Sequence record: KC755108.1
Strand: one strand, 5' to 3'
From: a phage
Length of the DNA stretch: 814 nt
Shown: piece after piece, positions 1 through 814 of the stretch
Position numbering within the stretch: position 1 is the stretch's first letter
Layout of the letters: every line of letters begins with the position of its first letter
Program-made: the position numbers and the translations under genes
Notes under the pieces: generated by a model
What the model was told of the DNA's origin: nothing
The model's input: only the letters and a program-made list of their open reading frames with translations
The model's database searches: none

Positions 1-25
1 TATATTGTTTAATCTTCTTTATCAT
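1..25 (-). other. Window-start segment where the gp23 translation diverges (probable 1-nt deletion near 23-25, and about 13 nt at 1-13 not recognisable as gp23)
   Basis: The core frame reads ...ALLFQM IKKIKQY. gp23 as I recall it continues LLFQ-IDKEAVEIARQ. The coding strand cag atg ata aag aag matches cag atT gat aaa gaa g (Q I D K E) if one T is restored, but the remaining ...attaaacaatata gives D-stop in that frame and does not resemble the expected continuation. Confidence 0.4.
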
Positions 26-727
26 CTGGAACAGTAAAGCTTTGAAGCTTTCACCAGCCCAACGAGCACCACGGATATCAATCGGGTCCTGGAAGTCAAA
101 CACACCAGCTTTAGCGCCAACGGTGTTGGTCATACCAGATTTACCAACCTGTGCGGAGTAGTTAATCCAATCGATAACTTCGCGGTTGATTTCCAGCATA
201 ATTTCGGTAGCCAGAATACCACTCAATTCGGCATCAGCATCCATACCGTGAACAGCGCGGAGGTCCTGTGCCAGTTCGATGGAGTAGCTTGCTTTCAGCT
301 GACGGGATTTAGCTTCGATAACTTGTTTGTCGATGCGGAAGCCCATTTCGTTCCACGGGTTATCAGAGGAACCGTTAAAACCTTCTTGCAGTTCGGCGAT
401 GGAGGTAGCCATACCTTCAGCGATTTCTGCCAGCTGACCAGCTTCGAGCAGTTTGGTAACTTCAGCGTCAAGTTTAGCAGCATCAGTAGCACCAGCATCA
501 ACGGTTACAGCTTCAACAGCCTGGTAGTGTGCGGAACCGGTTGCTTCGAAGAAGTGAGAATAAATTTTACCAACTTCCAGAACTTTGCTTGCAGCCAGTG
601 CTTCAAAAGTCTGAGCAGCGCCCTGACCAGAGAACATAGCGTTCGGAGCATACATCGGATGGAAAGCTTCTTTAGCACCAGCAGCGACAGGGTCTTTACC
701 GTATACTGCACGCAGTGCAAATACCTG
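2..727 (-). CDS. 23: Major capsid protein, T4-type (gp23 family), internal fragment; open at the window start (no stop codon in window), 5' side interrupted by a frame break at about 727-729
   Basis: Hand translation of the minus strand in the frame whose codons occupy + positions 3k+2..3k+4 gives no stop from 727 down to 2. Read N to C it starts QVFALRAVYGKDPVAAGAKEAFHPMYAPNAMFSGQGAAQTFEALAASKVLEVGKIYSHFFEATGSAHYQAVEAVTVDAGATDAAKLDAEVTKLLEAGQLAEIAEGMATSIAELQEGFNGSSDNPWNEMGFRIDKQVIEAKSRQLKASYSIELAQDLRAVHGMDADAELSGILATEIMLEINREVIDWINYSAQVGKSGMTNTVGAKAGVFDFQDPIDIRGARWAGESFKALLFQM... Long blocks match T4 gp23 as I recall it from memory (not a database search). Codon usage is that of a highly expressed gene (GCT, GGT, CGT, CTG, AAA, GAA preferred). 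Confidence 0.92.
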
Positions 728-729
728 GG
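727..729 (-). other. Apparent single-nucleotide insertion (extra G in a GGG run on +; extra C on the coding strand) breaking the gp23 reading frame
   Basis: The coding strand reads ccg act ggc C cag gta ttt. PTG is in one frame and QVF in the next, with one surplus base between them. Removing one base from the run restores a continuous ...NNPTGQVFALRA... matching gp23. Confidence 0.7.
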
Positions 730-806
730 CCAGTCGGGTTGTTCAGAGGCTGTACGCCACAAATATCAAACGCAATCAGATGCGGGATAGCACGCCGCAC
801 AACCCC
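729..806 (-). CDS. 23: 5'-proximal segment of the same gp23-family capsid gene, in a different reading frame from the core (frame shifted by one nt at about 727-729)
   Basis: Minus-strand codons occupying + positions 3k..3k+2 translate, N to C from 806 down to 729, as GVVRRAIPHLIAFDICGVQPLNNPTG. This matches the gp23 region immediately upstream of QVFALRAVYGKDP (T4, as I recall: MVRRAIPNLIAFDICGVQPMNSPTG). In the core frame the same bases read through to TGA at 743-745. An in-frame TAG at 807-809 ends this segment on its upstream side. Confidence 0.8.
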
Positions 807-809
807 CTA
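803..809 (-). other. Second apparent single-nucleotide insertion with an in-frame TAG (807-809) in the upstream gp23 segment
   Basis: The coding strand reads tg tta tag ggg gtt gtg cgg cgt gct. Deleting the A at +808 gives gtt atg ggg gtt gtg (VMGVV; T4 has VMGMV as I recall). Deleting one G from the 5-nt G run (+803..807) gives gtt ata ggg gtt gtg (VIGVV). Either way one extra base is present. Confidence 0.55.
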
Positions 810-814
810 TAACA

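Follow-up and report, generated by a model that had tools for sequence, protein, structure and literature searches.

The gene 23 fragment and its relatives

The stretch of DNA analysed here (814 nt, hereafter the window) is part of the major capsid protein gene, gene 23 (g23), of a T4-type Gaprivervirus phage, and shares at most 97.9% identity with known genomes. The gene is encoded on the minus strand of the window, and the plus strand is antisense to g23. A megablast search against 50,697 phage records returned 987 that match the window, and every annotated one among them is a major capsid or major head protein. The Gaprivervirus phages P896 (97.9%), RZ (96.8%), SP18 (95.8%) and VR7 (94.8%) headed these matches. 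Outside a primer footprint at the end of the window, the g23 genes of these four phages (P896, vB_EcoM_RZ, SP18 and vB_EcoM-VR7) are 95–98.6% identical to it. The window covers the same region of the protein, gp23 residues ~93–360, and likewise matches the Pfam family Gp23. The features of the window are collected in Table 1.

Table 1. Features of the 814-nt window, in order of position, with the evidence on which each is based.
Feature	Position	Strand	Evidence
Thirteen bases unrelated to g23, TATATTGTTTAAT; putative read-start noise replacing ~21 nt after CAP8	1..13	+	Alignment
Missing base, AA read as A; third frame disruption	24..25	+	Alignment with relatives
Gene 23 (major capsid protein) core, intact and in one frame	26..726	-	Frame translation, Pfam, identity
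Extra base, GGG for GG on the read strand; template-derived, late in the read	727..729	+	Relatives ACTGGCCAGG or equivalent
Mzia1 footprint (27 nt) plus one spurious base; synthetic, run-off end of the read	787..814	-	Primer alignment
Mzia1 inosine site 3 (CGI) read as G, giving a CGG codon	795..795	-	T in 12/12 relatives
Mzia1 inosine site 2 (GTI) read as G, giving a GTG codon	798..798	-	T in 12/12 relatives
Probable miscalled zone: one extra base (808 or the G run 803-807) plus substitutions at 804, 803 and 801	801..808	-	Comparison with primer and relatives
In-frame TAG, probable artefact of the extra base in the ATI-GGT segment of the primer	807..809	-	Relatives all GTT ATG GGT
Mzia1 5' T	814..814	-	Close relatives all A (GCA GTT); more distant T4-type contigs T (GCT GTT)

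The core of the gene (26–727 on the minus strand, 234 codons) matches the Pfam family Gp23 (PF07068) with a score of 161.6 bits (cut-off 24.4; E = 4.6e-47). When the core was divided into blocks of 60 alignment columns, overall identity to Gaprivervirus g23 was 95–99%, with long runs identical to one or other of the relatives. The region of P896 equivalent to the window aligns with residues 89–367 of T4 gp23 (E = 1e-156). The fragment is an ordinary Gaprivervirus g23 allele. However, the Gaprivervirus genomes carry g23 as one unbroken ORF of 519 codons, whereas the window contains three indels, all of them at its ends.

Within the core, a single codon is private to the window when compared with Gaprivervirus g23. 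At 365–367 on the minus strand the window codes for Ser with TCT, whereas the codon in each of the four relatives is CAG (Gln); the equivalent T4 residue is Thr (NGS-S/Q/T-DNPW). The change affects the entire codon, and the high-quality middle of the read holds no other private difference. The codon probably represents a genuine allele, at a surface position that varies.

The core also shows a mosaic pattern of similarity. Positions 547–726 are identical to RZ and SP18 and differ from P896 and VR7, while over 427–546 it is P896 that is identical (120/120), with RZ and SP18 matching at 107/120 and 102/120 positions, respectively. Judged from these alignments, the mosaic across 427–726 suggests recombination among Gaprivervirus g23 alleles.

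The longest unbroken ORF in the window lies on the plus strand, antisense to g23 (248–790, 180 aa, GTG start). A search of this ORF against Pfam gave no significant match, the best (E = 0.072) falling short of the cut-off. We therefore rejected it as an alternative gene, as it has no Pfam support and runs antisense to a highly conserved capsid gene. Most likely it is a spurious ORF lying antisense to a gene with strong codon bias.

Reading frames of the window as written

The minus strand of the window starts TGTTATAGGGGGTTGTGCGGCGTGCTAT. Its translation passes in turn through VIGG, then GVVRRAIP...TGP, then QVFALRAVYGKDP... through to ...ESFKALLFQ, and lastly MIKKIKQY. The single frame that gp23 requires is therefore not present in the window as written, which instead needs three frames and a fourth shift at 24/25. 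A TAG lies at 809–807 on the minus strand, in the frame that yields GVVRRAIPHLIAFDICGVQPLNNPTGP (frame translation L*GVVRRAIPHLIAFDICGVQPLNNPTGP). The five-G run occupies 807–803 on the same strand (CCCCC on the plus strand), with an A at 808.

Alignment with the four intact relatives places one extra base at 803–808 and another at 727–729. In context, the former reads TGTTAT[A]GGGGGTTGT in the window and AGTTAT-GGGTATGGT in the relatives, whilst the latter reads GG[C]CCAGG. Moreover, 69 bases of the window align to 68 genome bases in each of the best 15 of 751 matching genomes. The original prediction had described a TAG, a five-G run and one base to be removed at 801–814, all of which are present there, and had ascribed the loss of the gp23 frame to a +1 insertion, which the alignment shows as the one extra base at 803–808. 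It had also held that the two +1 insertions do not compensate each other, so that three frames are needed, and this is indeed seen in the minus-strand translations.

The peptide that it had proposed for this site, V-M/I-G-V-V-R-R-A, was mistaken. All of the relatives and T4 have V-M-G-M-V-R-R-A in a continuous frame, and the bases at 804, 803 and 801 of the window are wrong in addition to the extra base. Across 801–808, GGTATGGT is read as GGGGTTGT, with substitutions that differ from both the primer and the relatives. The checks that had been suggested (inspection of quality, resequencing and alignment to relatives) were well chosen; the alignment found an unbroken gp23 frame in every intact genome, and the single g23 frame is kept in all relatives examined. 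It also continues unbroken further upstream (...VTQIGPAVMGMVRRAIP...). The prediction had allowed that gp23 might genuinely end or begin at this point. This is true only in the trivial sense that the amplicon begins at 814; the gene does not.

The site corresponds to V95–I103 of T4 gp23, where the amino acids are identical in T4, and lies inside the mature capsid protein (gp23*), which begins at residue 66. The V95–I103 stretch is included in the protein sequence of the deposited T4 capsid structures.

Codon usage at this end of the window is also unusual. CGG and GGG are each absent from the 234 codons of the core, as had been claimed, and each occurs once in the last ~90 nt; CGG is likewise absent from the full g23 of the four relatives. 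The judgement that the end region is less reliable than the core was correct. However, its cause had been missed, as 787–814 is the footprint of a primer and not gene sequence carrying an insertion. The third bases of the odd CGG and GTG codons are inosine sites 3 and 2 of that primer read as G.

Positions 787–814 derive from primer Mzia1

The primer pair Mzia1/CAP8 was reportedly introduced by Tetart et al. in 2001 (Krisch laboratory). We took the primer sequences from a later user of Mzia1 (PMC4229321), in which Mzia1 is given as 5'-TGTTATIGGTATGGTICGICGTGCTAT-3' and CAP8 as 5'-TGAAGTTACCTTCACCACGACCGG-3'. In that study the g23 amplicon was subjected to direct sequencing with BigDye v1.1 chemistry, once and 'using reverse primer CAP8' only (PMC4229321).

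When minus-strand bases 1–28 of the window were aligned to Mzia1, 21 of the 24 specified bases matched, with the three inosine sites left open and one gap of 1 nt. The end of the window coincides to the base with the 5' base of the primer. There are three sites at which Mzia1 departs from the close relatives (814, 798 and 795), and the window agrees with the primer at all three. Polymerases preferentially place C opposite inosine, and G is therefore the base expected at the inosine sites 798 and 795. The reading of inosine site 1 is ambiguous, as either the A stands there or the extra base occupies the site. These data show that 787–814 is primer-derived. As the bases in this region are specified by Mzia1, they provide no evidence on the phage genome.

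At the other end, the CAP8 site in the relatives begins 21 nt past the last base of the window that matches g23. The Mzia1–CAP8 amplicon measures 845 bp in the relatives, which after subtraction of the 24-nt CAP8 leaves 821 readable nt, compared with the 814 nt of the window. Furthermore, the plus strand of the window, antisense to g23, runs in the direction that sequencing from CAP8 gives. The Mzia1 and CAP8 sites mark the two limits of the window. The base missing at 24/25 (relatives ATCAATCTGG, window ATCATCTGG), a third frame disruption beyond the two that the prediction had listed, changes the C-terminal end to ...FQMIKKIKQY, where ...FQIDKEAAEIARQ is expected. Taken as a whole, the start of the read (1–25) fits the unreadable first bases of a dye-terminator read after CAP8.

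With Mzia1/CAP8 amplicons of g23 the window thus shares the start at the 5' end of Mzia1, the primer T, the two inosine-to-G sites, an end just inside the CAP8 site, a fitting length and the orientation of a CAP8 read. It differs from the published Mzia1 oligonucleotide by one extra base and three substitutions within the footprint. Primers are usually trimmed before deposition, whereas in the window Mzia1 remains untrimmed.

Errors along the read and the origin of the broken frame

We counted as private those differences in which the window departs from a state common to all four relatives. Seven such differences fall in the 28-nt footprint, compared with four in the 761 nt of 26–786 (Fisher's test, p about 1e-8). 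Indels were found only at read positions ~24, ~728 and ~808, so that all three lie within 110 nt at the ends of the read and none in the 704 nt between (p = 0.002). The miscalled zone at 801–808 holds four events in 8 nt. The middle of the read, by comparison, is a near-perfect patchwork of known alleles, with 547–726 identical to RZ and SP18 at 180/180 positions and 427–546 identical to P896 at 120/120, and the errors are therefore specific to the ends. This clustering indicates that the disruptions track position in the read and are not a property of the gene.

The variants were also sought in natural phages. The string bearing the insertion at 808 had no match in IMG/VR, compared with eight for the wild-type string, and there were likewise no matches in IMG/VR to the string bearing the insertion at 727–729 or to a version of Mzia1 in which inosine sites 798 and 795 are both G. 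None of the 751 phage genomes that match the last 70 nt of the window exceeded 91.3% identity there. Moreover, the frame disruption was absent from all 12 relatives compared base by base.

The explanation that we favour, at a probability of roughly 80%, is that the window represents a raw Sanger read, made in a single pass, of a Mzia1/CAP8 g23 amplicon from a Gaprivervirus-like T4-type coliphage, and that the TAG and the frame break are artefactual. The plus strand would be the read itself, primed from CAP8. Such a read would open with noise after CAP8 (1–13), drop a base at 24/25, run clean through 26–726, gain a base in the G run at 727–729 and then run off the template through the complement of Mzia1 (787–814). 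The oligonucleotide would have imposed the 5' T and the two G-for-inosine bases, while at 801–808 the additional base and the three substitutions would be base-calling errors at ~800 nt, where peak resolution is poor. The apparent +1 shift, the TAG and the GGG, GTG and CGG codons would all result from the primer-imposed bases combined with the miscalls. We attribute the broken frame to errors in the read and not to the gene. The extra base at 727–729 is most likely a late-read homopolymer miscall. The residual errors at 801–808 probably arose in base calling and not in the molecules themselves, with the caveat that 804, 803 and 801 are not inosine sites and yet differ from the primer, and that the density of errors is high even for the end of a read.

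The SP18 sequence was public before 2013, and SP18 (95.8%) is nearer to the window than VR7 (94.8%). This sits slightly awkwardly with VR7 as the best match named in PMC4229321. The phage described there is a T4-like phage of E. coli, '95%' identical to vB_EcoM-VR7, with its sequence deposited as GenBank KC755108 (PMC4229321). The identity of the window to VR7 is 94.8% over its whole length and 95.2% once the primer is set aside, and from this circumstantial agreement we infer that the window is probably this deposit.

Two other readings also make the broken frame an artefact. The extra base and the substitutions may have been physically present in the amplicon, either through an n+1 or otherwise faulty batch of the oligonucleotide or through slippage or misincorporation by the polymerase across inosine in a G-rich stretch. 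Four events within the 8 nt of 801–808 would suit such an origin, as would the position of the errors beside inosine site 1 of Mzia1, and a CAP8-primed polymerase would presumably have to copy the inosine-containing oligonucleotide. However, direct sequencing reports the average of a population, in which rare faulty oligonucleotides are unlikely to dominate, and the indels at 727–729 and 24/25 lie outside the primer and still at the ends of the read, pointing to an effect of read position. We therefore regard this origin as unlikely; were it correct, the errors would still be artefactual and silent on the phage genome. It is less probable still that the window is a low-quality g23 read or assembly made without Mzia1, which ends at the primer site by chance and carries ordinary end-of-read errors. 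Errors at both ends would fit any single-pass Sanger read, but here one end matches the 5' end of Mzia1 to the base and the other halts just short of the CAP8 site. Furthermore, the T, G and G at the three diagnostic sites follow the primer against all close relatives, and G at both wobble sites occurs in none of the IMG/VR contigs.

The remaining reading takes the disruption as real, with g23 either a pseudogene or a gene whose expression relies, near codon 95, on a programmed +1 frameshift or on translational bypass. The in-frame TAG and the three frames as written speak for it, and T4 gene 60, a well-known case of translational bypassing, makes recoding conceivable in this group of phages. 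However, the likeness to gene 60 is superficial, being limited to an in-frame stop after which reading resumes in a different frame; in the window the disruption is unconserved, falls in synthetic primer sequence and correlates with read position without following any sequence feature. We therefore rejected a programmed frameshift or bypass site, which is not conserved in the 12 relatives and would lie in the primer footprint. As 787–814 is set by the primer it cannot report the genome, and a pseudogene or recoding at 801–809 is effectively excluded because the primer overwrites the genomic bases there. Moreover, all relatives, including those 98% identical to the window, keep one frame with an invariant VMGMVRRAI, and neither insertion occurs in any natural contig in IMG/VR. 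As the major capsid protein, gp23 is essential, and a propagated phage must be viable. Given this essentiality, the unbroken frame of every relative and the effect of read position, a real disruption at 727–729 is very unlikely. Overall, we consider a truly disrupted gene 23 highly improbable. The most extreme version, in which the insertion at 727–729 is real, the major capsid gene depends on a programmed frameshift and 801–809 hides a compensating change overwritten by the primer, can hardly be credited at all.

Read as an untrimmed Mzia1/CAP8 amplicon with errors at the ends of the read, the broken frame has no biological significance for the phage and matters for data hygiene only. Any use in translation, phylogeny or primer design should be preceded by trimming 1–25 and 787–814 and deleting one G from 727–729. 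The signature of an untrimmed inosine primer consists of G at wobble sites, rare codons and an end exactly at the primer, and in a scan it can pass for a frameshift, a pseudogene or recoding.
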